Assembly (NCBI GenBank): GCA_048938005.1
Contig: JBHLMQ010000012.1
Span: 12,038-76,037 of the forward strand
Direction: 5' to 3'
Length of the DNA stretch: 64,000 bases
Source of the DNA: Promethearchaeota archaeon
Lineage (GTDB): Archaea; Asgardarchaeota; Lokiarchaeia; Sigyniarchaeales; SOKP01
The notes beneath the pieces were generated by a model. It was not told where the DNA came from, made no database searches, and saw only the letters and a list, made by a program, of their open reading frames with translations. A program made the position numbers and the translations under genes. Shown in pieces: positions 1 through 56,338 of the stretch (position 1 is the first letter of the stretch; each line of letters begins with the position of its first letter).

Positions 1-3000
1 GCCTCCAATATAGCAAATGCTTCTATTTTACGATTTTCCAACAATTGTTTTATCTTTTCCTGTTTTTTGATTTCAATATTTTTTGCTCTTAATCTTTCTT
101 GTTCTATTTGCATATATTCAGAGATCTTTTTCTGAAATTGTTCTTCTTCCTTTTTATGTTGCTTTAATGATTCAATTTCAAATTTTTTCTCTCTTTCTAT
201 ATCTCTCTTCCTAGCTTTAATTGTATTTAAAGTATCTTGAAGTAATTTTAAATAATCACTTGTCCATCCAATCTCAGTTAAAATATTTATTGCATTTTGA
301 TAGTTATTTAACGCTTCATCATAATCCTTTTGGTAAAGTGAAGTATATCCATCATTAATGAGTTTAAAAGCTTCTTGTTGTTTTGCTAAATTTTGGGTGG
401 TAAGTAATTCTTTCTTTTGAATTATTTCTCTTTCCTCTAATGCTTGTACCCTTTCTATTTCCCTTAAATGTCTTATCCTTTCCATAAAAGTATAATTTTC
501 CTTCTCTTTTTCTATTGCTTCAGTGATCGATTTTTGTCTTAATAATTCTTTTTTTCTCTTCTTCTTTTTAATATCTTGTATTGCTTTATTTATAATTGGA
601 ATTTCATCTCCCCATTGAATCTGAGCAAAAATATTGGCGACATTGTGATAAAGTTCAATAGCATCATCAAATTTGCTTTGTGAAATGCAGGTTTGACCTT
701 TTTCTAATAGGCTAAATGCTTCTTCCTTCTTTCTTTCACGGTAAGCAAGTTCTTTGTCTCTTTCTCTAATTTTAATTTCTTCTCTCTTTAATTTTTCACG
801 TTGTATTCTCATTTCTCCGATTAGTTTTTCTTGAAACAATTTCTCTTGTTTTTCCTTTTCCATAGCAGATTGTAATTCCCGTTGTTTTCTTAATTCAGCT
901 TCTCGTTTTTTATCCTCAACAGCAATAATAGAATTTTGAATTAATTTTATTTCTTCATCCCATTTAATTTCTCTAAAAATTTCTGCTGCTTCATGATATA
1001 AATTAATTGCCTCATCAAATTTTCCTTGTTGAATATGTTTTTGAGCTATTTCCAACTTTTTAAATGCTTCTTCTTCCTTTTGTTCTTGAAAAATTCTTAA
1101 TTCTTCTTGTTTCTTCAATTTCTCTTGCTTTTCTATCATTTTTTGCTCTTCAAATCTAATTTTCTCTAAAATTTGCTTTTGAAATAGTAATTCTTCTTGT
1201 TCTCTTTTTATTCTTAACTCTAGTTCTTTAAACCGGTTTAAATCTTCTTCTCTTATTTTCTCTTGAATTTTTGAAATCATTTCTCCAATAACTCCTGTTG
1301 GGAAATTGATTTCATTTAATATCAATTCTGCTTGATGATATTTTTCAATTGATTTTACGTAATCTCCTTGAATTAAAAGAGTTTGAGCATCATCCATTAT
1401 TTTAAAAGCTTCTGATTTACGCAACTCTATTCTTTTTGCTAAATCTTCTCTTTTTTGTATTTCAATTTTTTTGTCTTTTAACTTTTTCTGCTCTTTAAGC
1501 ATATATTCGCTAATTTTCTTTTGGAATAAATCATCTTCTTTCTGTTGTTTTAATGATGCTTCAAATTCTATTTGTTTCTCTTTTTCCTTTTCCTTCCCTC
1601 TTAATTTAATTGTTTGAATAGTTTCATGTAATAATTTCAAATATTGTTCTCCCCACCCGATATCTTTTAGAATTTCTATGGCTTTATTGTAATTATTAAT
1701 AGTGTCATTGAAATTTTCTTCTTCAAAAAACTTATCTCCAATTTCTATTAAACTAAATACCTTTTGCTGTTTAACTAAGTTTTGGGCAGATAGCTGTTTC
1801 TGTTCTTCGATTGATTCTTTTTCTTTCAAGAGTTCTGCTTTTTCTCTCTCTCTTTGATACCTTATTCTTTCAATAAATGCTTTATCTTCAGTTTCTTTCC
1901 TAATTGCTTTATGTAAAAGCTTTTGTTTATTTAATTCATTCTCCCTCTTTCTATTTTCAATACTTTGAATCGCTTCTTGGATGATGGGGATTTCTTCAGT
2001 CCATTGAATCTGAGCAAAAATATTTATTACATTATAATAAATTTGAAGTGCTTCATCAAATTTTCTATGAGAAAGGAAATCTTGGGCCTTTTCTAATAAA
2101 CCAAATGCTTCCTCTTTCTTTCTTTCCCGATAAACAAGTTCATTTTCTCTTTCTCTTAGAATTATTTGTCTCTCTATTAATTTTTGATGTTGGGCTTTCA
2201 TTTCTTTTGCGATATGTTCTTGAAATGCTTTTTCTTGTTTTTCTCGTTCCAATTCTGCTTGAAATTTAATCTGATTTTGAATTTCAGCTTCTATTTTTCT
2301 ATTTTCAAGTTCAACTATAGCATTTTGTATGAGGTTGATTTCATTCTGCCATTGAATATCAGCAAAAAAATTTAGACTATATTGAAATATATCAATAGCC
2401 TTATCAAAATTTCCTTGTTTTACATTGTCTTGTGCTTCTTCGAGTAATTTGAAACCTGCTATTCTTCTTTCTTCACGAAATTTAGATTCTTTCTCACGTT
2501 CCATTAATTCAATTTTCTTTTTCTTTAGTTTTTCCCGTTCTTGTTGTAAGTATTTTGATATTTGCTTTTGAAACTCATCTTCTTTCTTTTGTCTTTTAAC
2601 AGAGTCCTGTAATTTCTTTTGTTTCAAGATATTTTGTTTTCTTTGTAACTCTTCAACTTCTCTTATTGAATCTTCAATTAAAGGAATTTCATCTGCCCAT
2701 TGAATTTCTGCAAATATATTTGCAGCATTTTGATAATTTGAAATTGTGTTATCATAATCCCCCTGTTTTAAGGAATTTATAGCGGAATCTAGAAATTCAA
2801 ATGCAACTTTTTTGCGTTGTTCAAAAAGTTTAATCTCCTCTTCACGATCTTTAATAATTATTTCCTTCTTTTTTAAACGGTCTCGTTCTTTATTTATTTC
2901 AATTGATATTTGCTTCTGAAATTCTAATTCTTCCCGTCTTCTCTCCTCTAATTTTTTTTGCTCCTCGTATTCCTTGGTAAATTGTGCGTGCTTTAGCAGT

Positions 3001-4330
3001 TCTACATTAGAGACTGTATTTTTTATTATAGATGCATAAGGTTCCCAACCAGCACCTAAATTTGTAAGAATTGATAAAGCTTTCTGATATTCATTTATAG
3101 CATCATCATAATTTTTTTCTTTTAAAATCTCATCCGCTTTATCTAATGTATTAAAGAGATCTTTTTCTTTCTGTATTTCATCCCTTCTGACTTCTTTATA
3201 TTCTATACTTTTTTTATCTAATTCCCTTGTTGATTCGATAATTTGGGTTTTCTGCTTTTTGTAAATTGAGTCCTGGAGTACTGCTAAATCTTTTTCTCTT
3301 TTTTCTTTTAATTGATCAGTTACTTTTTCACTTTTTTGTTTATTTTTTATGCTTTCAATTAAATTTGCAATAGGTTGGATATATGAATCCCATTTTATCG
3401 ATCTAAGAAGTTGAATTGCTTGATTTAATTTATTGAGTGCTTGATCATATTTTTTTTCTCTTTCAAGCCTATTTCCAATATCTATTAAATTAAATGCCTT
3501 AAGTTGAATATCTTCCTCATGTTTTTTATTAGTTTCAAATTCAATTAGTTTTTCCTTTTTTAATTCTGCTTCTTTTTCTAAAACAACTTTCTGTTCTTCA
3601 ATATCACCAGATAACCTTAATGCTTCTTTTTTTTGTTTTAATTGAAGAGATTCAAAATCTGCTTTATCTTTATTAAGTTTTTTAATTAATATTTGAATAT
3701 TTTTTGTCTGAGCATTCCAACCTATAGAATCTAATAACTCTATAGCTCTTTCATAATTCATTCTTGCATTATCGAATTTTTTATCTTTTTCAAACTTTTT
3801 AGCTGTGTCGATATGAACAAAAGCCTGGTTCTGGATATCCTCTTCATGTTTTTTCTTTGCCCTAAATCTTTCAATAACTTTTGCTTTTTCAACGCTACTT
3901 TTTTGTCCGAACATTCCAACAATTTCAGGTTTCACTTCTGGTATTATTTGAGTTTCTTGTTGCTTTAATTCAATTTCCTGCTGTTGAAGTACTTGAATAG
4001 ATTTTTTAACCTCTAAATCTTTTACAAGTTTATTGATTTTAGATCTTATATTTTCTAATTGTGTCTCAGACCAACCTGCTTGAGTTAATAGATTGATAGC
4101 AGATAAATTTTGTTGAATAGCCTCTTCAGTAAAACCGTCAAATTCCAACTTTTTTGCCCCCTCTAATAAGGAAAAAGCTTGATCTTGCAATTGTTCAATT
4201 TGGGCTTTTTCTTGAGCTCGTTGATATAAAGCGTCTTTTTTGATAAATTCTTTTAATTCACTAATTCTATCATAAATTTCTTGAATTCTATGCATCAAAA
4301 ATCCACTTTGTTTAAGAAAATCAGCTGCTT
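1..4330 (-). repeat. Coding tandem repeat array, period about 345-350 nt, with a higher-order unit of about 1390 nt (4 repeats)
   Basis: The conserved Trp-containing motif (IQW/IGW/IKW; plus-strand ccattgaat, ccatccaat and similar) recurs near 266, 613, 963, 1300 (degenerate INFPTG), 1657, 2002, 2350, 2698, 3048, 3392, 3718 and 4072. Copies at 612 and 2001 share the plus-strand 24-mer ccattgaatctgagcaaaaatatt, and overall identity across the super-repeat is roughly 80% by eye. Confidence 0.8.
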
Positions 4331-4436
4331 TTTGATAATGTGAAATTGCATTTTCTACCTTTTTCTCTTCTTCAAACTTTTGGGCAAGTTCTAAAAATTT
4401 TAAAGCTTCTTGTGCTAAAAATTCTGGATTTTGCAT
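1..4436 (-). CDS. Giant tandem-repeat all-alpha protein, 3' end runs off the window (at least 1478 codons). At least 13 repeats of about 115 aa, each an MIT/TPR-like helical module plus an E/K/Q/R-rich coiled-coil linker
   Basis: My manual minus-strand translation from ATG (complement 4434-4436) gives MQNPEFLAQEALKFLELAQKFEEEKKVENAISHYQKAADFLKQ... and stays open to base 1. Trp codons at 264-266, 612-614 and 2001-2003 are all in the same frame. It is absent from the ORF track, presumably because no stop lies inside the window. There is no N-terminal signal peptide or TM segment. Confidence 0.8.
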   Translation of the reverse strand, partial: MQNPEFLAQEALKFLELAQKFEEEKKVENAISHYQKAADFLKQSGFLMHRIQEIYDRISELKEFIKKDALYQRAQEKAQIEQLQDQAFSLLEGAKKLEFDGFTEEAIQQNLSAINLLTQAGWSETQLENIRSKINKLVKDLEVKKSIQVLQQQEIELKQQETQIIPEVKPEIVGMFGQKSSVEKAKVIERFRAKKKHEEDIQNQAFVHIDTAKKFEKDKKFDNARMNYERAIELLDSIGWNAQTKNIQILIKKLNKDKADFESLQLKQKKEALRLSGDIEEQKVVLEKEAELKKEKLIEFETNKKHEEDIQLKAFNLIDIGNRLEREKKYDQALNKLNQAIQLLRSIKWDSYIQPIANLIESIKNKQKSEKVTDQLKEKREKDLAVLQDSIYKKQKTQIIESTRELDKKSIEYKEVRRDEIQKEKDLFNTLDKADEILKEKNYDDAINEYQKALSILTNLGAGWEPYASIIKNTVSNVELLKHAQFTKEYEEQKKLEERRREELEFQKQISIEINKERDRLKKKEIIIKDREEEIKLFEQRKKVAFEFLDSAINSLKQGDYDNTISNYQNAANIFAEIQWADEIPLIEDSIREVEELQRKQNILKQKKLQDSVKRQKKEDEFQKQISKYLQQEREKLKKKKIELMEREKESKFREERRIAGFKLLEEAQDNVKQGNFDKAIDIFQYSLNFFADIQWQNEINLIQNAIVELENRKIEAEIQNQIKFQAELEREKQEKAFQEHIAKEMKAQHQKLIERQIILRERENELVYRERKKEEAFGLLEKAQDFLSHRKFDEALQIYYNVINIFAQIQWTEEIPIIQEAIQSIENRKRENELNKQKLLHKAIRKETEDKAFIERIRYQREREKAELLKEKESIEEQKQLSAQNLVKQQKVFSLIEIGDKFFEEENFNDTINNYNKAIEILKDIGWGEQYLKLLHETIQTIKLRGKEKEKEKQIEFEASLKQQKEDDLFQKKISEYMLKEQKKLKDKKIEIQKREDLAKRIELRKSEAFKIMDDAQTLLIQGDYVKSIEKYHQAELILNEINFPTGVIGEMISKIQEKIREEDLNRFKELELRIKREQEELLFQKQILEKIRFEEQKMIEKQEKLKKQEELRIFQEQKEEEAFKKLEIAQKHIQQGKFDEAINLYHEAAEIFREIKWDEEIKLIQNSIIAVEDKKREAELRKQRELQSAMEKEKQEKLFQEKLIGEMRIQREKLKREEIKIRERDKELAYRERKKEEAFSLLEKGQTCISQSKFDDAIELYHNVANIFAQIQWGDEIPIINKAIQDIKKKKRKKELLRQKSITEAIEKEKENYTFMERIRHLREIERVQALEEREIIQKKELLTTQNLAKQQEAFKLINDGYTSLYQKDYDEALNNYQNAINILTEIGWTSDYLKLLQDTLNTIKARKRDIEREKKFEIESLKQHKKEEEQFQKKISEYMQIEQERLRAKNIEIKKQEKIKQLLENRKIEAFAILE

Positions 4437-4644
4437 TTTAGGCAATTCTACTTAATCTTATTATGAAATAAAAAATATACAAACATTATTCTTACTTTAA
4501 TTTAACCACACCAAGTAATTAAACTTTTTATATTGTTATAATTATTTTAACTAGATTATTGAAAACGATAAATAAAATTGAATTTATAAGAATATTGAAC
4601 TCAAATTTTTCAAAAAAAACAATCCTCATTACTGAAACTAAGTT

Positions 4645-6600
4645 ATGGAAATAGAAAGCAAAAATATTATCATAGATTTTGAGCCCATTTCTAGGAGGGT
4701 ATATTTTTCAAATGACAATTCTCTTTATGAAATTCTAACAGAATTGAATATACCAATCAGATCCTTATGTGGAGGTTTAGGAACCTGTGGAAAATGCAAA
4801 ATTATGGTTCAAAGTGGAAAAGAGTATTTGATTTCTCCGACTAATGCTGAAAAAGAGTTTTTAAATAAGGAGGAACTTGAAAATGGGTGGCGATTGGCAT
4901 GTGAAACAAAAATAGATAATAAATATATACAACACTTAGAAAAAGTTAAAGCTCCTCAATTTCGAATTTTTTTACCAAGTGAATTATTGCTTGAAGATTT
5001 TAAAATCCTAACAACTGGTATAAGTAAAGGAGTAAATGTACAACCAAATATTCAAAAAATCTATCTTGAAGTAAAAAAGCCATCATTAGAGGAACCTAAT
5101 CCTGATTTTGAAAGAATTCAATCAAGCATTTTTTCTGCTATTCCGCATTTGAAGAGAAATGAACAATTTAATATTGATTTTAATGTTTTAAAAGAAATAC
5201 CCGATATGCTAAGAAAAAACGACCATAAAATTACATTAGTCTTGCGGAATAATACTAATATTATTGCTTCTGAACCTGGTAATACTACTGAAGAGAATTT
5301 TGGAATTGCTTTTGATATTGGGACCACAACAATAGTTGGTTATTTAATGAATCTGAATGATGGTAAGATATATTCAGTAGATTCTAAATTGAATAGTCAA
5401 ACTGCTTTTGGAGAGGATTTAATAACACGCTTAACTTTTATCAATGAGGAAAAAGATAATCTTCAAAAATTAAATGCTGCTGTAATCAACGATTTGAATG
5501 ATATCATTTCAAATACGACTAGTAGAGCTCATATTAACCCATCTCAGATTTATGAGGCAACTATGGTAGGCAATTCTGTCATGCATCATATATTCTTAGG
5601 ATTGAATCCAGTTTATATAGGATTAAGTCCATTTATTCCAGTTATTCAAAGAAATTTGAATGTTAAAGCAAGAAATTTAAATCTAAATATCTCTAAAAAT
5701 GGGAATGTTTATACCGCACCTGTTATAGCTGGCTTTGTTGGGGCGGATACTATAGGTGTAATACTCTCTTCACAAATTTATGCTGAAAAAGAGCTTACTT
5801 TAGCTATCGATATTGGAACAAATGGAGAGATAATAATTGGAAATCGTAAAATCTTGGCTGTAGGTTCATGTGCAGCAGGTTCTGCTCTGGAAGGGGCTCA
5901 TATTAGCGATGGAATGAGAGCTGCGGCAGGTGCTATAGAAAAAGTTAAAATTAACGCTAATAATCTTGATATATCTTATACCACAATCAAGAATAAGAAA
6001 CCAATAGGTATTTGTGGTTCTGGATTAGTTGATGCTATAGCAGAGATGTTAAGATCCAAAATTATTACAAGAAGTGGAAATTTTAATCAACAATTTATTG
6101 ATCATGAAAGATTTATCAAAAAAGATAAAAAAATAGAATTTATTATAGCTAAAAAAGAGGAAACTTCTTTAGGTAAGGAAATCACGATTAGCCAAAGCGA
6201 TATTAGGCAAATTCAAATGGCAAAAGCAGCTTTTTATTCTGGATCAAGGATTATTTTGAATCATTTAAAGAAAAATATTAAGATTGAACAAATTTTTTTA
6301 GCAGGAGCATTTGGTAATTATATCAATGCTCACAATGCAAAATTCATAGGAATGATTCCTGATATTCCTGATCATAAAATATTTCAAATAGGAAATGCTG
6401 CTGGAATTGGAGCACAGCACTTTTTATTAAATAAGAGTATACGAAAAAAAGCGCAACAATTATTAGATAAAGTTCAATATGTTGAAATTGCAATAGAAGA
6501 AGGATTTCAAAAAGAATACGCTGAAGCAATGTATTTTCCTCACTTAAATCTTGATTTTTTTCCTAGCTTGATAGAATACAACAAAATACCAAAAAGGTAA
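4645..6600 (+). CDS. RACo-like corrinoid activation/regeneration protein (N-terminal 2Fe-2S ferredoxin domain plus DUF4445/ASKHA ATPase domain)
   Basis: Plant-type ferredoxin Cys motif RSLCGGLGTCGKCKIMV. ASKHA phosphate motifs AFDIGTTTIVGY and AIDIGTNGEIIIG. Length 651 aa matches the COG3894 architecture. Confidence 0.75.
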   Translation: MEIESKNIIIDFEPISRRVYFSNDNSLYEILTELNIPIRSLCGGLGTCGKCKIMVQSGKEYLISPTNAEKEFLNKEELENGWRLACETKIDNKYIQHLEKVKAPQFRIFLPSELLLEDFKILTTGISKGVNVQPNIQKIYLEVKKPSLEEPNPDFERIQSSIFSAIPHLKRNEQFNIDFNVLKEIPDMLRKNDHKITLVLRNNTNIIASEPGNTTEENFGIAFDIGTTTIVGYLMNLNDGKIYSVDSKLNSQTAFGEDLITRLTFINEEKDNLQKLNAAVINDLNDIISNTTSRAHINPSQIYEATMVGNSVMHHIFLGLNPVYIGLSPFIPVIQRNLNVKARNLNLNISKNGNVYTAPVIAGFVGADTIGVILSSQIYAEKELTLAIDIGTNGEIIIGNRKILAVGSCAAGSALEGAHISDGMRAAAGAIEKVKINANNLDISYTTIKNKKPIGICGSGLVDAIAEMLRSKIITRSGNFNQQFIDHERFIKKDKKIEFIIAKKEETSLGKEITISQSDIRQIQMAKAAFYSGSRIILNHLKKNIKIEQIFLAGAFGNYINAHNAKFIGMIPDIPDHKIFQIGNAAGIGAQHFLLNKSIRKKAQQLLDKVQYVEIAIEEGFQKEYAEAMYFPHLNLDFFPSLIEYNKIPKR

Positions 6601-6845: not shown

Positions 6846-7370
6846 ATGTCAAGTTTTAAACTGAAAGTATTACTTACTGGTGCTGCTGCTGTTGGAAAGA
6901 CTAGTCTTGTCCAACGATTCATCAAGAATAGGTTCCAAGCCAATTACAAGTTAACTGTAGGAGTTGATATTTTAACCAAAGATGTTGAATTTAGGCAAGG
7001 AGAGATTGCCACTTTAAGTATTTGGGATATAGGAGGACAACAACGATTCGAATTTATACGTAGTACATTCTATAAAGGTGCGGCAGGAGCATTATTAGTC
7101 TTTGACTTGACTAGAGAACAAACATATACTGAAACGAGAAAGTGGCTAACTGAGATAAGACAATTTGCTGGTGAGAATATCCCATTTGTTTTAATAGGAA
7201 ATAAAGCGGATTTAATGGAAGATGTTGGTATGGTCATAGATCGAAATGATGCTCGCTCATATGCTGAAAATGAGGGAAGTATTTATATAGAAACTTCTGC
7301 TAAAACGGGTGTTAATGTTGATGAAGCGTTTACTGAATTAACACGTCGTATTATTGATTCTAGAACTTAG
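6846..7370 (+). CDS. Rab/Ras-like small GTPase (174 aa, no C-terminal prenylation Cys)
   Basis: G1 LTGAAAVGKTSL, G3 WDIGGQQRF, G4 GNKADL, G5 ETSAKTG. Rab-like YKLTVGVD switch I region. The protein ends ...RRIIDSRT. Confidence 0.85.
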   Translation: MSSFKLKVLLTGAAAVGKTSLVQRFIKNRFQANYKLTVGVDILTKDVEFRQGEIATLSIWDIGGQQRFEFIRSTFYKGAAGALLVFDLTREQTYTETRKWLTEIRQFAGENIPFVLIGNKADLMEDVGMVIDRNDARSYAENEGSIYIETSAKTGVNVDEAFTELTRRIIDSRT

Positions 7371-9923: not shown

Positions 9924-11762
9924 CTAATTATTTAAAAGTTTTTGTAATTTTTGAATTTGCTGCTCAATCTTTTTTACATATTCACTAACTTTTTCCTTTT
10001 TCTCTTTAAGTTCATCTTTAGTTATTTCTCCTGTAAGTTCTTTCATCTCAAAATCCAAAGACATCTTGGTAAGATTCGCTTTTTTAATTTTAAGTTCTAA
10101 TAACGACTTTTTTAAATCATCTTTTTGTTGAGTATCCATAATTATAGGTTCCTGTTTTACTTTGCTAATTACTTCAGAAGTGATTTTATCTACTGAATTT
10201 ACCGTTGTTTTTGGAATTTTCAATTTCTTAGATTCAGGTATACTTGTTTTAACTTTTTGTTCCATTAATCTAATTGGTGAAACTGGTACAGGTGCTTTAA
10301 ATTCATCAGTATTTTTTACCTGGCTGAATGGTGATATTTTTAATTTAGATTTTGCATCTTTTGGAACAAATTCTACTGATTTTGGTTTAATTTTTACCAT
10401 AAAATCTTCGGGATTTAATTTTAAACCAACATTTTCTTTAATAACTCCAGTTTCCTTAGGTTTAACAATTTCTTTAGTATCTTTAACACTTATTTCAGGC
10501 TGAAGTGAATTAATATCAGATTTTGGGATGTGAGGGGATTTATTTAATATAGGTGTTTCTACTGCTTTCTGTTCGGTCTTTAGTTCTTGATGTATTGATG
10601 GAGGTGATTGTGGTGTTATTGTTGATTTTGGTAGAGAAATTGACTTTTCTAATTCTTCTGCTTTTTTATGAAATACCGGAGCTTGTTGTTCTTCAGGTAT
10701 TATAGGTACTGCTGGTGTGGGCGGTGGAGCACCTACTTTTTTTAACATATCTTTTATTTTTTGAGATTTTTCAAAAAATTCTCTTCCCAACGAATCATCT
10801 CCTAATTCAATGCATAAATCGCTAATTTTATCGAATAAGAATGCAGCTTTATTGAAATCAGCATTCTTTAAGGCTTTAACTGCTTCCTCAGTTAATTTAT
10901 CTCTCTCAAGTAAAGGTTTTAAAAGAGGAGAGACTTCTGCACTCATCTCTAAAATATCTGCAATTATTTGAATCATTTTATCACGATTTTTAGGATCTAA
11001 TGCTATCATAGAATAAGCTTTTAAACCTAACAAATTCTCAATTTGAACGGGATTCATTGCGCTTTTTAAATCTTGTTTATTTCCTATTACAGCAGACTGA
11101 GCATATGGCGCTTGTTCTTTTATTAGTTCTAAGAAATATTTACTTTTTTCAACATTTTCTAGTGTAGAATCAGTAATCAAAAGAATTGCATCACTACCTT
11201 TAATGAAGTTATTCCATAAATAGCTAAATTGCTCTTGTCCTGCAAAATCCCATAAATGAAAATGTAATTTTCCAATTCTTATAGTTGCTATATCACCAGT
11301 AATTGTGGGAATATGTTGCATTGGAATCTCATCTGCTTTGATCAATCTAGTAATTGTAGTTTTTCCAACTCCAGAAAATCCAACTAAAGAAATTTTAGGA
11401 CGTAAATTTCTATGAATTGAATCTATAATAGGATCAAAAACTTCAAAAGTTTTTGCATCAAAACGATGTTGTAAAATATCTGCAAATAAATTTAAAAACT
11501 CAGTTTTACATTTAACTAATTCTTTTTTAATATTCTCGAATTTATCGGTCAAACTTGACACAAATAAAAAAATAAGGTTAGTTTCTTTTTCTGTTATGAA
11601 GGATACCCTATATTTATAATAATCATGAAAACCTAATTTAGATTCGCGACTAATCAATGCTTCGTCAATGATATCTTCTACTAGAAGATTTAAAGCTTCT
11701 TGCTTTAACGCTTTACCAAAATGTCTATAATATAGAAGTTCATTGCCTCTGTATATAAACAC
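9924..11762 (-). CDS. Multidomain small GTPase: N-terminal longin/roadblock-like domain, Arf/Rab-like GTPase domain, single TPR/MIT-like helical hairpin, Pro/Lys/Ser-rich disordered linker of about 200 aa, C-terminal coiled coil
   Basis: G1 LVGFSGVGKTTI, G3 LWDFAGQEQF, G4 IGNKQDL. About 120 aa of alpha/beta pattern precede G1 (NLIFLFVSSL...). EEAVKALKNADFNKAAFLFDKISDLCIELGDD follows the G domain. Next comes GAPPPTPAVPIIPEEQQAP and then low complexity. The tail is a heptad-like KDELKEKKEKVSEYVKKIEQQIQKLQKLL. Confidence 0.8.
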   Translation of the reverse strand: MFIYRGNELLYYRHFGKALKQEALNLLVEDIIDEALISRESKLGFHDYYKYRVSFITEKETNLIFLFVSSLTDKFENIKKELVKCKTEFLNLFADILQHRFDAKTFEVFDPIIDSIHRNLRPKISLVGFSGVGKTTITRLIKADEIPMQHIPTITGDIATIRIGKLHFHLWDFAGQEQFSYLWNNFIKGSDAILLITDSTLENVEKSKYFLELIKEQAPYAQSAVIGNKQDLKSAMNPVQIENLLGLKAYSMIALDPKNRDKMIQIIADILEMSAEVSPLLKPLLERDKLTEEAVKALKNADFNKAAFLFDKISDLCIELGDDSLGREFFEKSQKIKDMLKKVGAPPPTPAVPIIPEEQQAPVFHKKAEELEKSISLPKSTITPQSPPSIHQELKTEQKAVETPILNKSPHIPKSDINSLQPEISVKDTKEIVKPKETGVIKENVGLKLNPEDFMVKIKPKSVEFVPKDAKSKLKISPFSQVKNTDEFKAPVPVSPIRLMEQKVKTSIPESKKLKIPKTTVNSVDKITSEVISKVKQEPIIMDTQQKDDLKKSLLELKIKKANLTKMSLDFEMKELTGEITKDELKEKKEKVSEYVKKIEQQIQKLQKLLNN

Positions 11763-22618: not shown

Positions 22619-24904
22619 TTAAATAACCCAATAATACGGAGTACTCCTTCCATCTTCACTTTTTGAAACACAGATTCTATTTAAATAAGTTAAATTATAA
22701 TACATTTCAATCTCTTCATCGGTTAAATAACCAATTAATTCTGAACCTGATACTAAAAGATAACTATCGGTTACTATTAAGAAAACATCCTTTCCTGAAT
22801 CATTTTTTAATTCAACAAGGATATTTGTTCCATTTTGTATATGTAGCCTAGGATTTAGATAGTCTTCTGAAACTGTAAGAAAAAGTATAATGGAAGTAAG
22901 TGGGCGAGATGCATTATTTTCATCAAAAGGATAATCATAATAAATAAAAATGGGACCCCATCCAAATTCTGCTATTATAACATTTTGATTAGAAGTATAG
23001 TTAGAATACCATTGAACAGTGCTTACCTCTCGTCTTTTTAAACTATAAAATTCAATTGAGGATTGAGCTTCGAAATAAGTAGCAAATAAAGAGAAAGTTA
23101 TTATAAATATCATAAAAAATTTTAATTTTATTTTCTGTATTGAGTTGGCTTTAACTAATTTATAGAAATACGATACAAATCCAATAGCAATTAATATAGA
23201 TGATAAATAAAATATTCTAGAAAAAAAAGTAAATGAGCCTGTAATGAAATCAAATAAAAAACCAGCAATTAAAATAATTCCTAATGCAAATCCCCATAAT
23301 AACAATGGTTTTCCCCTTGGTTTGTATTGGAGTATCCATAATCCCCAAATTGCAAACGCGCATATAATTAATATTTCAAATCCAGTAAAAACTACTACAA
23401 GGCTAAATTTAAACAACAATATATTAGTAATCGCGAAGATGAATGTAAATATTATACCAAAAGTAAAAATGAGAGGAAAAAGTAATTTTTCTTCTATTTT
23501 TTTTAATATTTTATGTTTTTTCCCTTTAATAATTAAAGAATATCTACCCCTCTCAAAGCTCATTGACTTACGATAATGTAAAAGTACGAATCCTTCCAAT
23601 ATTCCAAATATTATTACCCCAAATAAAATATAGTACCATGATATGGTGGTTAATCTATTAAAAACAATGAAATGTCCAGTACTAATATTTAAAAAATAAA
23701 AGATAAAAAAGATACATAAACAACCACATAATAAAATAAAATCATTACCTCTCCTATAACTTTTAAAAAAATAAATTAAATAAACCCATAAGAAAGAAAT
23801 TAAAAAAATCATAGCGATTAATGAATGAACCAAGAGACAACTAATAAAAATTATGATAAATAAAAAATATGTAAAAAACATGCCAGAGAAAATCTGCTCC
23901 TTACTTGGTTCTTTTTCTTTAATTAAACTTTGCAATCTTATATATAAAAGAAAAAATAATGTTATTCCTTGAATTAAGGCTAAACTAGAAGGCCAAAACT
24001 GAGACATCATACTTAAGAATCCTAATGATGAAAAAACTAAAATATAAATCCCAAATATTGCTAAATTCTTATTTCTAAAAATCCTCATAAAGAGATTATA
24101 TATAATTATAGAAGATAATGGAAACGTATAAAAAACAAAAAATTTGGGAATTAAAAAAATATCTATTCCTGAAAAAAAATGGAATATAGCCCCAAAAATG
24201 TGGAATCCAAAGGTGCCGAAATAATCAGTTAAAGGCAAATAATTTATATCTGTTATAAATTTAATAATTGAAATATGCATCCAAGGGTCTGTTCCTATAA
24301 ATATACTAGTCCCAAAAATTCCTAAGATACAAACCAAAAAAATAAAAATACTTAATAAAACAGAGGTTGAAAATCTAAACTTTTTAATAGAATTTAAAAT
24401 AGAAAAATTCTCAATAAAATTATTTTTATAATCAGAAGTAAATTTTAATTCAATTATATTAAATTTTCCTTTCTTCAAATCAATAATAAAAATCCATAAA
24501 ATAATTAATAAGTAAGTTATCAACAAAATAAAGAAGAAAAACAATCCAGTTAAAGCAAATCCTAAATAAAAGCCAAAAATTCCAACAAGTATATAAAAGG
24601 ATAAATTAGCTACAAAGGTAATAGCTAATCGTTCTAAAAAATTCAATTTTTTTTTTTTAAATATAATAAAAACAATCGGATAAAGAGGTAAAAATAAGAG
24701 TGTAAACCCTGTACTTATATAAACAATTAAATGAAAAAACCAATCTAAAAAAATAATTTGCGATAAACCAGAAACTATATTAAAATTTATAATTCTGAGA
24801 AATATAAATATTAAGGATATTATAGAGATTAATATTATAAATAGATGAATCCTTATTTTTATGAAAAAAATTATAGTATTAAATTTCAAATTTTGAATTT
24901 TCAT
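22619..24904 (-). CDS. Large polytopic membrane protein with C-terminal soluble domain (GT-C-like glycosyltransferase or polymerase candidate)
   Basis: 761 aa, about 18 hydrophobic segments, then a soluble tail of about 150 aa. The loop motif IGTDPWMHISII is reminiscent of the STT3/AglB first-loop DP(W/Y) motif, but no WWDYG was found. Confidence 0.4.
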   Translation of the reverse strand: MKIQNLKFNTIIFFIKIRIHLFIILISIISLIFIFLRIINFNIVSGLSQIIFLDWFFHLIVYISTGFTLLFLPLYPIVFIIFKKKKLNFLERLAITFVANLSFYILVGIFGFYLGFALTGLFFFFILLITYLLIILWIFIIDLKKGKFNIIELKFTSDYKNNFIENFSILNSIKKFRFSTSVLLSIFIFLVCILGIFGTSIFIGTDPWMHISIIKFITDINYLPLTDYFGTFGFHIFGAIFHFFSGIDIFLIPKFFVFYTFPLSSIIIYNLFMRIFRNKNLAIFGIYILVFSSLGFLSMMSQFWPSSLALIQGITLFFLLYIRLQSLIKEKEPSKEQIFSGMFFTYFLFIIIFISCLLVHSLIAMIFLISFLWVYLIYFFKSYRRGNDFILLCGCLCIFFIFYFLNISTGHFIVFNRLTTISWYYILFGVIIFGILEGFVLLHYRKSMSFERGRYSLIIKGKKHKILKKIEEKLLFPLIFTFGIIFTFIFAITNILLFKFSLVVVFTGFEILIICAFAIWGLWILQYKPRGKPLLLWGFALGIILIAGFLFDFITGSFTFFSRIFYLSSILIAIGFVSYFYKLVKANSIQKIKLKFFMIFIITFSLFATYFEAQSSIEFYSLKRREVSTVQWYSNYTSNQNVIIAEFGWGPIFIYYDYPFDENNASRPLTSIILFLTVSEDYLNPRLHIQNGTNILVELKNDSGKDVFLIVTDSYLLVSGSELIGYLTDEEIEMYYNLTYLNRICVSKSEDGRSTPYYWVI

Positions 24905-34713: not shown

Positions 34714-36387
34714 ATGGATAAACAGAGAATTTTGAAAGAAGCTCAACGTATTGCTAAGGAATTTTCTTTTTGGATGGTTTCGGGAAATATATCTCATTTA
34801 TATGGTTATATATATGAAACTCCGGAAAAAAAATATGAATTGGAAATCAAGTTTGATGAAAATTTTCCGAATAGTCCCCCTCAAATGATTTATAATAATG
34901 AGATTAAAGAATTATTAGGAAATTTTCAGTTAAATAATCTTATTAATTGGACACCTGAGTCTAGCGTAGTTAATATTATTTATGAGCTTAAAACAAAAAT
35001 TGAAGATGTTTTGAAATCACTTAAAGAAATAACAGAAAAAAGATTAATTCCAATTGAAGAAGAACACACTATTGATAGTACTTCCAAAAGTGAAGAATAT
35101 ATTACACCTGATCTAAATGTTTACCCACCAGATTTTCAATATGATGAATATATTACTACTTCAGCTTCTCCTGATGATTTATTTTATAGCGAACAGCCAT
35201 TTATGAGCCCATCAAGTGATTTTGATTCATCTCTTATCGACAAATCTGAAAATGAATCCAAAATATCAATTCAAGAAAATATTATAGAGGAGAATAACCA
35301 ATTAAGTGTTTTAATTAATACTGAATTAGGTTTAATTCAACAAGAATATGCTTATGATCAACTAGGATCCAAGAGAGCAGATATTAATGTTTATATTACA
35401 ATAACTCTTACAAAAACATTTATAATTTCAATAAATTTCATGAGTTACCCTAAACGACCAATTATAACCTTTCCTGATGAGTTGAACAAAATATTAAGGG
35501 ATCCTTACAAAACCTTGAGCACTTTGAGAGAATGGAATTCTAAAACACCATTACACATTGTAGATATCATCCATGAATTAGAGAAAAAATTATTTTTTAT
35601 TAGAGAAATAGAACTTCAATCTAAAAAAATTTCAGGCGAATATCAATGTGAAAAAGTTCCTGCTAGTATCACAGCACTACAAGTTCATTTATTAACTTAT
35701 GGTTTTAAGAAATATAATATGAGTATTGATCTTGAGTCTTATCCAAATCCCCCTATTCTTGATTTATCCTCTGAATTGGAGGAAATTATCCAGATCCCCA
35801 TTACAGAATTAAACGCCTATAAAAATTGGATAGAAAAAGAATCTGAACCAGTCGAAATTATAAGAGAAATTTCTTGGTTAGTTGATAAGAATTCGAGAAT
35901 TAATTTTGAAATTGATTTATTAAAAGACCATTATCAAAATATAAAATATGAACCATCAACAGCAACTATAAATATAGAAATGAAAGGTAAAATGAAAACT
36001 GAAGATTTAACGTTTGAATTTCAAATTAATTTACCTATTGAATATCCAATGAAAATGCCCGAAGTTAAAGTTATAAACGAATTTGAACTTGAAGCTCATG
36101 AGAAAATAAAAAATAACTTACATGCCTCATTTAATGACTTTTTTAATGAATGGACACCATTTAGTTATCTTGTAGATTTATTTAATTTAATTTCTAAGAA
36201 AATTTTTGAAGTATCAGTAGTATCGTGTGTCATCTGCCACAAAATTGAATGTCCAAGTTGTACTAAAAAAATTGCAGGTGAAGATAATTGTCATTCAGAA
36301 TGTCCCCATTGTAATAGAGTATATCATAAACATTGTTGGGAACAAACTATTAAATCATTTGGTAAATGTGGTTTCTGCTTAAGATAG
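34714..36387 (+). CDS. Four tandem UBC-fold E2-variant (UEV/RWD-like, no catalytic Cys) domains plus C-terminal RING-H2-like zinc finger
   Basis: Each domain has a YPxxP(P) flap followed by a W..(T)P helix. D1: FDENFPNSPPQMIY...GNFQLNNLINWTPESSVVNIIYEL. D2: MSYPKRPIITF...LREWNSKTPLHIVDIIHEL. D3: ESYPNPPILDL...YKNWIEKESEPVEIIREI. D4: IEYPMKMPEVKV...FNEWTPFSYLVDLFNLI. The finger is CVICHKIECPSCTKKIAGEDNCHSECPHCNRVYHKHCWEQTIKSFGKCGFC. Confidence 0.6.
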   Translation: MDKQRILKEAQRIAKEFSFWMVSGNISHLYGYIYETPEKKYELEIKFDENFPNSPPQMIYNNEIKELLGNFQLNNLINWTPESSVVNIIYELKTKIEDVLKSLKEITEKRLIPIEEEHTIDSTSKSEEYITPDLNVYPPDFQYDEYITTSASPDDLFYSEQPFMSPSSDFDSSLIDKSENESKISIQENIIEENNQLSVLINTELGLIQQEYAYDQLGSKRADINVYITITLTKTFIISINFMSYPKRPIITFPDELNKILRDPYKTLSTLREWNSKTPLHIVDIIHELEKKLFFIREIELQSKKISGEYQCEKVPASITALQVHLLTYGFKKYNMSIDLESYPNPPILDLSSELEEIIQIPITELNAYKNWIEKESEPVEIIREISWLVDKNSRINFEIDLLKDHYQNIKYEPSTATINIEMKGKMKTEDLTFEFQINLPIEYPMKMPEVKVINEFELEAHEKIKNNLHASFNDFFNEWTPFSYLVDLFNLISKKIFEVSVVSCVICHKIECPSCTKKIAGEDNCHSECPHCNRVYHKHCWEQTIKSFGKCGFCLR

Positions 36388-51727: not shown

Positions 51728-52630
51728 ATGAGTAAAACATTGAATCTTAAAAGCATTAAAACACTTTTAAAAAAGATAAAAAACCCATTAACTTTTCGGA
51801 ATGCTCTTCTATATAAATTCTGTTCATTTTTATACCGTAAAAACAACGGTTTCTATATTTTTAATGAATCATGGGACAATTTAATCATCTTGGATGCATG
51901 TAGATATGATGTTTTTAAAGAGCAATATTTAAAAAGAAATATGAAAGGGGAGCTATTTAAAAAAGTTTCAAGAGGAGCTCATACAATCTCTTTTCTTTTT
52001 GAAAATTTCACAAAGAATTATTATGATGATATTATATATATAACAGCTAATCCTTATGTTAATAAATTTCTCAAAGGTAAATTTTATAAGATTATTTCAG
52101 TATGGAAAGACAATTGGGATGAAAAACATCACACAGTTTTACCAGAAACTATGTATGATTATGCTATTAAGACTTTATTAAAGTATCCTAATAAAAAATA
52201 TATAATCCATTTCATGCAACCACATTTTCCATATATTGGTTATAAATTAGAAAAGAATATTCCGAATAAATCTTTTTTTTCGTTATATGCTGCAGAAATA
52301 TATACTCATATAGAATATTATACTCATATTAAAATTTATAAAAAAAATTTACAAATAGCCCTAACTTATATTGAAAAGCTTATCAATGTATTACCAGGTA
52401 TAACCATAGTTTCTGCGGATCATGGAGAAGCATTTAAAGAAAAATTACATACATTAATACCATTCACATTTTCTGGTCATAGAAGAGGAATTCGTATGCC
52501 CTCTTTAGTAAATGTTCCCTGGCTTATAATTAGACCAGAAGAAAAAGATCATAGCATCAGAAATAACTTATTAGAAGAATTTATAATTTCAGATCAAGTA
52601 AATAAACTAAAAAATAAGAAAGTTATTTAA
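51728..52630 (+). CDS. Small alkaline-phosphatase-superfamily (sulfatase-fold) protein
   Basis: LIILDACRYD (metal Asp), GAHTISF (possible Thr nucleophile), VSADHGEAF. Confidence 0.5.
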   Translation: MSKTLNLKSIKTLLKKIKNPLTFRNALLYKFCSFLYRKNNGFYIFNESWDNLIILDACRYDVFKEQYLKRNMKGELFKKVSRGAHTISFLFENFTKNYYDDIIYITANPYVNKFLKGKFYKIISVWKDNWDEKHHTVLPETMYDYAIKTLLKYPNKKYIIHFMQPHFPYIGYKLEKNIPNKSFFSLYAAEIYTHIEYYTHIKIYKKNLQIALTYIEKLINVLPGITIVSADHGEAFKEKLHTLIPFTFSGHRRGIRMPSLVNVPWLIIRPEEKDHSIRNNLLEEFIISDQVNKLKNKKVI

Positions 52631-54652: not shown

Positions 54653-56338
54653 TTAATCTCGTATAATTTTTTTAAGAAATCTTAACATTTTTCTAATTAT
54701 TTTATGGAGAAATGTATCTTTTTCAAAAAATCTTTCTATACTCTCAACATCAGACTTTGAGAAAATCTTAAAAATATAATTTAAGAATAAAAAGGTTAAC
54801 AAGAAAGTCATCAAAGAGAAAAAATTAAGATTTTGAAATATTAATAAATTTAAAGCTTCAAGCACCATATAATTGATTTGACTTAAATATAAAATTTCCA
54901 GAATTATAGCAAATCCTAATGAGATAAAAAAGATTATATATTGAAGAAATGACTTTTTTATATTTAATTTAATATTAAAGATCTTGAAATTTAATATTGC
55001 AATTAAAATAAAGTAAATAACATTTGCGATAAAAAGAGCAATAATAGCTCCAATTAATCCATATAGAATTAAACCTAACAAGAAAGCAGGCATTTTTATT
55101 AATGCTGACATTAAGGAAATTGGAATGATATATTTATATTTAGGACTGGATCTAAGCATACTAAAGAAGAGGCTATTTTGAACGCTAAAAATTATTGTAA
55201 TTATCATTAACTTTAATATTATTGAAAATTTTAGGAAACTTTTTCCATAAATAATTCGTAGGAAAAAATCGATAAAAAAATATACTATCCCAGTTATTAT
55301 CAAAATTAAAAAAGTAAAATAGTAAAATGCAATCTTAAAAAATTTTTTAAGTTGTTCTTTTTGATCCTTAGCATATAAACTTGAAAAACTTATAATTAAC
55401 GGGCTATTTAACGATTTAACACTCTCAAGAGATATGTTTCGATAGTGGACCGAAATATTATAACCTGTGACCATTTCAAGACTCTCAAAATATCCAACAC
55501 TCTGAATTCTAAATTCATTAAATGTGCTATCAATAAAACTCTGAAAACTTAATTGATATCCATAAGCATATAAATTTTTAAGAATTTCCTTAAATTTTAA
55601 TGGTATTTCTGAAGTTTTTTTAATCTTAAAATTTAAAACAAAGAAGAGGATGATGATATTAATTACAAAAGGGATTAAATTTGCAAAAAGTGATATATAA
55701 GCAATAAAACTTACCTCAATGACTCCATCAAAAAAGAATAAAAATATTAAACCTACAGTATATATTAAATATCTTATCGCAACCATAATAAATACAGTTT
55801 TAAACATGTTTAGTGGTCGAAAAATATTAAGAAGAATTTTATCAATTCCAAGGATTAAAATAAGTGGTGATAATATAAAAAAGAGATATGAATAATTACC
55901 CAAATTAATATTAAATATTCCAGTAAAAAATAGATATATAAGAATTGCAATAATAAAAACGACAAGGACAAAAAACAATCTAATAATTAACGAATATTTA
56001 ATAAATGATTTCAATTTATTATTTTGATTTAATGTTATAAATCGGGGTAAATAATAATGATAAGTAGGTCCCACACTAGGAGGAAAGAAATTTAAAATAA
56101 GTATAAAGATATTTACATAAGATTGAGAAATTATTAAAAGCCCCCATAAACTTTTGGAAATCAATCTTGCTGTAAAAAAAGAAGTTACTAATGAAAAAAA
56201 AATTACAGTATAACTATTTAAGAAGTTATAAAATGAATTCTTAGCTAATTTTCTATACTCATTCTTTAATTCTTTTTTTTGATTTAACTTATTCTTATTC
56301 TTATTATTATTATTCATTTTATTAGTAGTAATTAACAA
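54653..56338 (-). CDS. MOP-superfamily polysaccharide flippase (Wzx-like), second copy
   Basis: 561 aa with about 14 hydrophobic segments, in a glycan-cluster context. Confidence 0.6.
   Translation of the reverse strand: MLITTNKMNNNNKNKNKLNQKKELKNEYRKLAKNSFYNFLNSYTVIFFSLVTSFFTARLISKSLWGLLIISQSYVNIFILILNFFPPSVGPTYHYYLPRFITLNQNNKLKSFIKYSLIIRLFFVLVVFIIAILIYLFFTGIFNINLGNYSYLFFILSPLILILGIDKILLNIFRPLNMFKTVFIMVAIRYLIYTVGLIFLFFFDGVIEVSFIAYISLFANLIPFVINIIILFFVLNFKIKKTSEIPLKFKEILKNLYAYGYQLSFQSFIDSTFNEFRIQSVGYFESLEMVTGYNISVHYRNISLESVKSLNSPLIISFSSLYAKDQKEQLKKFFKIAFYYFTFLILIITGIVYFFIDFFLRIIYGKSFLKFSIILKLMIITIIFSVQNSLFFSMLRSSPKYKYIIPISLMSALIKMPAFLLGLILYGLIGAIIALFIANVIYFILIAILNFKIFNIKLNIKKSFLQYIIFFISLGFAIILEILYLSQINYMVLEALNLLIFQNLNFFSLMTFLLTFLFLNYIFKIFSKSDVESIERFFEKDTFLHKIIRKMLRFLKKIIRD

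Follow-up and report, generated by a model that had tools for sequence, protein, structure and literature searches.

A giant gene of Loki-type Asgard archaea encodes a long array of predicted MIT-like three-helix nodes on charged helical connectors

A stretch of 64,000 nucleotides from a Promethearchaeota archaeon (assembly GCA_048938005.1, contig JBHLMQ010000012.1, positions 12,038 to 76,037 of the forward strand), referred to in its entirety as the window, begins with the larger part of a giant gene on the minus strand (3..4436). This part encodes the N-terminal 1478 amino acids (aa) of a protein composed of tandem units, each of which combines a small three-helix module, termed node in the following, that is predicted to adopt an MIT-like fold with a charged and likewise helical connector. 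The gene is real and conserved: judging from orthologue lengths, its product is an all-alpha protein of ~2122 aa and ~240 kDa, and the window holds the first 13.5 of its 18 units, corresponding to about 70% of the gene. The reading that we favour with moderate confidence is that the giant protein would act as a scaffold or spacer that is long, semi-rigid and multivalent.

The reading frame itself is beyond doubt. From the start ATG at 4434-4436 (minus strand), 1478 sense codons without a single stop extend to the window edge, as claimed in a preliminary description of this DNA, and the gene runs on past window position 1. For a stretch with a G+C content of 28%, 1478 stop-free codons rule out a chance frame; the remaining five frames of window 1-4436 contain 78-166 stops each. 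The start codon is credible since the N-terminus, MQNPE.LAQEALKFLE, is common to 48 orthologues of the giant protein. Moreover, the GC and AT skews are strongly negative over window 1-4000, which fits a purine-rich coding strand on the minus side and a protein rich in E, K, Q and R; together, E, K, R, D and Q account for about half of its residues. The listing of open reading frames (ORFs) omits those that cross the source ends and contains none in window 1-4436, and if the preliminary description was based on a track made by the same rule, its empty track over this region is explained. Sequence analysis of the window part of the protein revealed neither a transmembrane-like segment nor a signal peptide, and the N-terminus is hydrophilic, in agreement with the cytoplasmic location proposed beforehand, which is what the sequence predicts.

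The repeat anatomy was resolved with a hidden Markov model (HMM) of the unit, built from eight 116-aa slices of the giant protein. The window comprises 13 complete units of ~116 aa as well as the first 52 residues of a 14th, so the previous count of at least 13 tandem repeats of ~115 aa was correct, apart from the irregularity of the first four units. Each unit consists of a ~60-aa three-helix node and a charged helical connector of 46-55 aa. Full-length orthologues retrieved from the databases measure 2113-2127 aa. The full-length orthologue P0001 (2122 aa, 87% identical), with which the window protein forms a gapless alignment of 1478 aa, features 18 such units followed by a charged tail ending in KKKK; this polybasic C-terminal tail is present in orthologue P0002 as well. 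At the N-terminus, node 1 (aa 7-67; 4236..4418, minus strand) was delimited as an MIT-like three-helix module by Pfam MIT and an orthologue profile. It is followed by an irregular array with unequal connectors (2946..4235, minus strand), which holds node 2 (aa 83-143), node 3 (aa 201-261), node 4 (aa 310-370) and node 5 (aa 425-485); it is the first four connectors of the protein that are irregular in length. From there on, a regular array with a 116-aa period (3..2945, minus strand) encompasses units 6-13 and the start of unit 14, with unit HMM scores of 108-143 bits per unit. Its nodes 6-9 are located at 2634-2816, 2286-2468, 1938-2120 and 1590-1772, and nodes 10-13 at 1242-1424, 897-1079, 549-731 and 201-383, all on the minus strand.

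An anchor tryptophan marks the nodes at aa 121, 239, 348, 463, 579, 695, 811, 927, 1158, 1274 and 1390, and its period is strictly 115-116 aa from aa 463 to aa 1390. The near-invariant Trp noted in the preliminary description was hence rightly recognized, with the qualification that nodes 1 and 10 carry Phe in its place. On a higher level, units 7-10 and 11-14 make up a four-unit super-repeat, in which the corresponding units 8/12, 10/14, 9/13 and 7/11 share 56%, 49%, 41% and 35% identity, respectively, compared to 18-40% for most other pairs. Copy 1 (aa 614-1076; 1209..2597, minus strand) and copy 2, which is clipped at the window edge (3..1208, minus strand), were delimited by these unit identities together with repeats at the DNA level, where diverged direct repeats of 61-76% identity occur 348 nt and 1389 nt apart, the latter spacing being that of the super-repeat with 74% identity. 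Tandem Repeats Finder detected no near-identical or long-period tandem array in the giant gene. Given this null result and the 61-76% identity of the DNA copies, the repeats are old, and a recent DNA tandem array or an assembly artefact, which was considered, is ruled out.

Assignment of the node to a fold class relies on family profiles as well as on structure prediction. On the giant protein, the Pfam families TPR_2, TPR_12, MIT, TPR_1 and TPR_11 each reach ~1e-16. The TPR families match their 34-aa consensus with 60.2 bits (TPR_2 and TPR_12) and 58.9 bits (TPR_1), while the whole-protein score of 60.0 bits for MIT (cut-off 30) is the sum of six partial stretches within profile positions 2-36 of 66, the best of which lies at aa 9-43 in node 1. 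When nodes are examined in isolation, 7 of the 13 match Pfam MIT, each below the cut-off of 30 (node 6, for instance, with 19.6 bits) and with a best E-value of 4e-5. Shorter relatives of the protein have MIT as their best-scoring Pfam family (84-90 bits), and in one of them the match extends over profile positions 2-62 of 66. A profile built from the 13 nodes finds its best PDB sequence matches in consensus designed TPR proteins, to which it aligns a single TPR motif (positions 12-34; AqkllkqkkfdeAinnYqkAini on the side of the node profile), but it also matches the MIT domain of Sulfolobus Vps4 with an E-value of ~2e-4. In addition, an orthologue profile of node 1 matches the MIT domains of calpain-7, archaeal Vps4 and human VPS4A with values of 1e-3 to 6e-3, aligned from the N-terminus.

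For the fold search, node 8 with short flanks (aa 768-838; 1923..2135, minus strand) was modelled with AlphaFold, using 48 orthologues as alignment. The resulting model has a predicted local distance difference test score (pLDDT) of 95.9 and a predicted template-modelling score (pTM) of 0.82, and it features three helices at residues 2-22, 26-42 and 46-70, i.e. of 21, 17 and 25 residues. When it was compared with the PDB by Foldseek, the top 11 matches were all MIT domains with template-modelling scores (TM-scores) of 0.45-0.76 and E-values of 0.2-0.5. The best matches, almost without exception MIT domains, include those of yeast Vps4 (4niq, 2v6x, 5fvl), MITD1 (4a5x), spartin, USP8, Sulfolobus Vps4 (2w2u, 0.62), katanin p60 (5nbt, 0.66) and NRBF2 (2crb, 0.76 with a root-mean-square deviation of 1.8 Å over 72 columns; 4zey, 0.75). 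Taken together, the node as modelled is an MIT-like three-helix bundle that amounts to 1.5 TPR motifs, in which the conserved Trp corresponds to the TPR helix-A Trp and opens node helix 3. The MIT/TPR likeness that had been suggested from the residue pattern of the helical module is borne out by the Pfam scores, the node matches and the fold ranking. Beyond these modules, Pfam and NCBIfam revealed no effector or other domain in the giant protein or its relatives, the NCBIfam matches of the giant protein being at noise level; an informative domain fused to shorter or longer relatives was sought without result; weak PUB matches (24-29 bits) do not reach the cut-off of 34.

The arrangement of successive nodes was approached by an AlphaFold model of units 7-10 (aa 614-1076), which is wholly helical with a pLDDT of 82.7 and a pTM of 0.30. 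Its helices 84-176 and 317-410, of 93-94 residues each, each start as helix 3 of a node, pass through the entire connector and end as helix 1 of the node that follows. Judging from these helix lengths, the net advance per unit would be ~11 nm, calculated as (93 residues forward - 17 back) x 0.15 nm, and 18 units, if extended, would span ~0.2 micrometre. A break or hinge is predicted at EKESIEEQKQLSA (aa 872-884; 1785..1823, minus strand) in the connector preceding node 9, where residues 259-271 of the four-unit model are non-helical with a pLDDT below 50; its equivalent in unit 13 is located at 396-434 (minus strand). A fold search with the four-unit model yielded no match at E<=1e-3 and TM-scores of 0.09-0.14, which is uninformative because an extended rod has no global analogue. 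A further motif, PEIVGMFGQKSS (aa 170-181; 3894..3929, minus strand), emerged from the orthologue alignment in the connector between nodes 2 and 3. Its V, F, G and K are each at least 90% conserved over 48 orthologues. No other conserved element of the part encoded in the window is clearly non-helical, and the motif may serve as a short linear site for docking or modification.

Charged residues make up 43-61% of the connectors, and their charges are ordered. Pairs of opposite charge at i+3/i+4 are enriched (126 versus a shuffle mean of 98.0, z=+3.71), while pairs of like charge are depleted (63 versus 91.8, z=-3.90), a charge order that is, as far as sequence can tell, the signature of an ER/K single alpha-helix (SAH). 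Hydrophobic occupancy of the heptad a/d positions amounts to 0.31-0.54 in the best register of the eight regular connectors, on which ground a canonical two-stranded coiled coil was rejected; one hydrophobic position in every 7 residues is consistent, whereas a second core position is not. All regular connectors within the window, namely the eight aligned ones and that before node 14, contain the motif F-x-x-x-[I/L] in the variants FQKQI, FQEHI, FIERI, FQKKI, FQEKL and FMERI. Conservation among orthologues is 0.66 for connectors versus 0.73 for nodes, and the ratio of nonsynonymous to synonymous substitution rates (dN/dS) is 0.25 and 0.28, respectively. What the preliminary description termed a conserved charged coiled-coil linker is therefore helical, conserved and equipped with the motif, whereas the coiled coil gives way to an ER/K-type charge order.

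Conservation in related genomes had been named beforehand as a check, and the giant gene was found in at least 78 Lokiarchaeial (Promethearchaeia) species genomes. Database searches retrieved 206 matching proteins, labelled 'hypothetical protein' or, in some cases by JGI, 'TPR repeat protein'. Among GTDB species genomes, 113 stretches match, the best 80 of which form 78 loci; nearly all of these are titled Promethearchaeota/Promethearchaeia or 'uncultured archaeon', while in a few cases submitters gave the unconfirmed labels Hermod-, Hod- or Odinarchaeota. The cultured strains Prometheoarchaeum syntrophicum and Lokiarchaeum ossiferum are not among the 80 stretches listed. When 1.84 billion cluster representatives were searched exhaustively with HMMER, 133 relatives only were returned, and of ten relative clusters sampled, the five that carry names are all Lokiarchaeota/Promethearchaeota. 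At NCBI, Promethearchaeota is a phylum of the kingdom Promethearchaeati that contains the class Promethearchaeia; we take it to correspond to the Loki lineage of Asgard archaea, with which the Lokiarchaeota labels among the matches agree. The giant family is specific to Loki-type Asgard archaea.

Within this lineage, an alignment of 48 orthologues, 2108-2127 aa long, takes up 2130 columns and is nearly gapless, with invariant core residues, and each unit retains its own conserved residues. The dN/dS ratio of the giant gene is 0.285 (versus locus L002), compared to 0.03-0.25 for neighbouring genes, which characterizes a gene under purifying selection yet relatively plastic. Copy number varies as well: orthologues at the same locus contain 10, 14, 18, 20 or 25 units, the differences always being whole units, and a 17-unit relative was counted in addition. 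The 14-unit orthologues (1652-1662 aa) lack a block equivalent to aa 1036-1498 of P0002, i.e. 463 aa or four units, the length of one super-repeat. At the extremes, the 25-unit orthologue comprises 2927 aa and the 10-unit orthologue, at the shared locus, 1188 aa; all shorter relatives are pure poly-MIT arrays. One relative, P0150 (1143 aa), is encoded at another genomic position and is probably a paralogue of the giant protein. A second large TPR-like protein (877 aa) is found near P0150 (L085:1002-3635), and some Lokiarchaeia may carry more than one poly-MIT/TPR rod gene.

Regarding its genomic context, the giant gene is transcribed divergently from a gene for a RACo-type corrinoid activase (4645-6600). 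Next in the window are genes for a Ras-like GTPase of 174 aa (6846-7370, plus strand), an aspartate kinase, a PHP-domain protein and an Arf-like GTPase, a 612-aa protein with an Arf/Roc-like GTPase domain (9924-11762, minus strand). On the other side, which is visible in orthologous loci, the next gene after the giant gene, on the same strand, encodes a 527-aa ThiF/E1-like protein, and genes for a HAD hydrolase and a UQ_con (E2-like) protein come after it. This E1-HAD-E2 set is located downstream in every locus examined (L001-L005, L084, L086), from the 10-unit to the 25-unit forms. Likewise, the Ras-like GTPase gene is near the giant gene in every locus examined, its product being 82-99% identical across loci where the giant protein drops to 37%, and the Arf-like gene is present in those loci that extend far enough upstream. 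The combination of Ras-like GTPase, giant gene and E1-HAD-E2 is kept even where RACo is no longer adjacent. An obligate operon of the giant gene and E1 was rejected, because genes on the opposite strand intervene in three lineages: L004 and L086 have an S8 peptidase gene at this point, and L084 has two small genes. No gene of the endosomal sorting machinery ESCRT was detected within the window or the examined loci of 20-26 kb. With an E1 that is 79% identical where the giant protein is 37% identical, the genomes compared are not very distant, which weakens synteny as functional proof; the neighbourhood is regarded as a lead and not as evidence of function.

The spacer of 208 bp between the giant gene and RACo was compared among five loci. 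Its best-conserved part is the 29-nt block TAATTATAACAATATAAAAAGTTTAATTA (4516..4544), which is nearly invariant, with most columns identical, in all five loci down to 42% giant-protein identity, and which probably represents a shared or bidirectional promoter or a transcription-factor site. The block consists of two palindromic TAATTA sites around a TATA-like core.

Further along the window, positions 13346-34432 are occupied by a large cluster for glycan or nucleotide-sugar biosynthesis, including UDP-GlcNAc 2-epimerases, a DegT aminotransferase, a hexapeptide transferase, a nucleotidyl transferase and a flippase-like Polysacc_synt protein as well as several dehydratases/epimerases and several glycosyltransferases. 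The G+C content falls to 22-26% around 22-28 kb and is similarly low (22-24%) at 52-58 kb. A 557-aa protein encoded at 34714-36387 (plus strand) contains a partial, degenerate UQ_con/UEV-like domain at aa 38-93 (E 4e-9), of which no single stretch passes alone; it is probably the 'UEV' protein of the preliminary description. Three ORFs at 22619-24904 (minus strand), 51728-52630 (plus strand) and 54653-56338 (minus strand), of 761, 300 and 561 aa, respectively, lack a Pfam match at E<=1e-5.

How the favoured scaffold or spacer might work can be outlined on the basis of the predicted architecture. As helix 3, connector and the following helix 1 are predicted to be unbroken, the chain would form a segmented rod in which the ER/K-like connectors would set the spacing of the nodes. 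Judged by what MIT and TPR domains do, the nodes in turn would be sites where peptides dock, and, being distinct from their neighbours yet conserved among orthologues, each would offer a conserved surface of its own. Several observations weigh against this reading, though. First, the Foldseek E-values of node 8 are 0.2-1.5, so that the fold argument rests on ranking and TM-scores instead of significance; such weak values are expected, as a helical domain of 71 residues is short. Second, the pTM of 0.30 means that node orientation, and hence a straight rod, is not established by the four-unit model. Third, the giant protein diverges faster than its neighbours, with 37% identity where the adjacent E1 retains 79%. 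Finally, conservation of the connectors comes close to that of the nodes, and they feature a hydrophobic seam and an invariant Phe, none of which a passive spacer would need. In view of this constraint and the conserved motif, the connectors probably make specific contacts, in trans or with partners.

Several more specific roles compete with that of a generic scaffold. One of them, a rather unlikely possibility, is an ESCRT-III adaptor whose nodes would bind the C-terminal tails of Asgard ESCRT-III paralogues, tails of the MIT-interacting motif (MIM) type; one molecule would then decorate, bundle or measure an ESCRT-III polymer or bring it to a site. In favour of it, the node fold is nearest to MIT domains that bind ESCRT-III MIMs, i.e. 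those of Vps4, MITD1, archaeal Vps4, calpain-7 and spartin, and the shorter relatives match MIT better than any other Pfam family. Moreover, the E1-like and E2-like genes are conserved neighbours, and Asgard archaea show a functional link between their ubiquitin and ESCRT genes (PMC9192718). On the other hand, the sequence likeness to MIT resides mostly in helices 1-2, which amount to a generic TPR hairpin, ESCRT genes are absent from the window and the 20-26 kb loci examined, and 18 differing node surfaces are ill-fitting for one repeated ligand. In NRBF2 and katanin, in addition, the partners bound by the MIT domain lie outside ESCRT.

Doubtful as well is a self-assembling cytoskeletal element, in which chains would pair or polymerise via the connector seam and the invariant Phe, possibly with docking of nodes onto connectors, to give a lattice or ruler resembling spectrin, nebulin or intermediate filaments. 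Here the constraint on the connectors, which approaches that on the nodes in conservation as well as in dN/dS, counts in its favour, as do the hydrophobic position in each 7 residues, the F-x-x-x-[I/L] motif in every regular window connector, the clade-fixed length with changes by whole units and by four units as in ruler proteins, and the predicted spectrin-like continuous helix between three-helix bundles. Yet the a/d occupancy is too sparse for a canonical two-stranded coiled coil, the charge order suits a monomeric ER/K helix, and there is no homology to spectrin.

The most far-reaching proposal, which we regard as improbable, is a Lokiarchaeia-specific cytoskeletal ruler or tether of ~0.2 micrometre, whose 10-25 distinct MIT-like nodes, ~11 nm apart, would dock onto a polymer or onto partners encoded nearby. 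ESCRT-III, Lokiactin, tubulin or partners from the ubiquitin system and the small GTPases would be candidates for docking, and membrane remodelling or protrusions would be organised thereby. If true, this would be an Asgard invention: the MIT module built into an architecture akin to that of spectrin or nebulin, for which eukaryotes offer no known example.

Three remaining explanations are effectively excluded. An ordinary TPR solenoid with mis-segmented repeats, such as a co-chaperone-like peptide clamp, could account for the scores of the TPR families, the consensus designed TPR proteins as best PDB sequence matches and the JGI label of some orthologues. It is nevertheless very improbable, given a single TPR motif per 116 aa, an AlphaFold model with isolated nodes of 1.5 TPR set apart on long helices and not stacked into a superhelix, and TM-scores of 0.09-0.14 between the four-unit model and TPR solenoids. 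A spectrin homologue, put forward as an alternative in the preliminary description, is contradicted by the lack of any PF00435 match at E<=1 and of any spectrin in the top 50 fold matches; moreover, the node helices measure 17-25 residues versus ~30 in spectrin, and it is the topology alone, a continuous helix between bundles, that is similar. A spurious or decaying low-complexity ORF, i.e. fast-evolving charged filler as the charged composition and the faster divergence than in neighbouring genes might suggest, has a practically negligible chance in view of the complete lack of stops versus 78-166 in the other frames, orthologues in at least 78 species genomes with a locus kept in those examined, gapless alignments with invariant core residues, a dN/dS of 0.285 and a very confident node model, while frameshifts or stops in most orthologues, which decay would entail, were not seen.

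No description of the giant family was found in the full-text literature searched, including papers on ESCRT and Asgard archaea. Whereas the MIT domain itself is known, a chain of 10-25 single MIT-like nodes on ER/K-like helices appears to be undescribed. The giant gene is among the largest in these genomes, and throughout the Loki lineage it has stayed at one locus. The MIT/TPR module, by which regulators of ESCRT and microtubules are typically recognized, is encountered here in an arrangement of which no description was found. Should the protein be a multivalent rod, it would be a concrete candidate for a new element that gives structure or organisation to the Asgard cell, and a natural example of a protein ruler with nodes on SAHs; this bears on how protrusions, the cytoskeleton and membrane-remodelling systems are built in Asgard archaea. 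Even a generic scaffold would resolve the labels 'hypothetical protein' and 'TPR repeat protein' on more than 100 database entries.

Compared with known systems, the giant protein combines features that otherwise occur separately. It shares with the MIT domains (PF04212) of Vps4, MITD1, Vta1, calpain-7, katanin and spastin the up-down-up three-helix bundle of ~60-70 aa, equivalent to 1.5 TPR. Known MIT domains are single or paired and joined to an effector, for example an AAA ATPase, a protease, a kinase or a deubiquitinase, whereas the giant family features 10-25 nodes and no effector; furthermore, single nodes remain below the Pfam MIT threshold, and node helix 3 carries a Trp of the TPR type. 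NRBF2/Atg38, the best structural match of a single node, likewise displays an MIT-like bundle followed by a long helix. It differs, however, in having one MIT domain and one dimerising coiled coil, in belonging to the PI3K-III complex and in sharing 12% identity with the node, and nothing suggests orthology. In TPR solenoids, for their part, three or more neighbouring motifs stack as a right-handed superhelix, while the giant protein provides one motif and a capping helix per 116-aa unit.

Among rod-forming proteins, the rods of spectrin, alpha-actinin and dystrophin resemble the giant protein as tandem three-helix bundles of ~106-116 aa with a conserved Trp in a long rod, and the last helix of one repeat continues as the first helix of the next, which is predicted here as well. 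Apart from the shorter node helices, the difference is that the bundles of the giant protein are ~50 exposed helical residues apart and do not abut, so that this resemblance is one of analogy and not of homology. The ER/K helices of myosin VI and X, caldesmon and a Kelch-motif family protein share with the connectors the high charge content, the i+3/i+4 pairs and the prediction as isolated helices. Unlike ER/K SAH spacers, the connectors keep a hydrophobic seam and an invariant Phe and are conserved at nearly the level of the nodes, which is unusual for an SAH. Finally, nebulin, a molecular ruler of unrelated fold and sequence, likewise has its simple units organised into super-repeats; in the giant protein these are four units long, and the length is constant in a clade and varies in steps of whole units.

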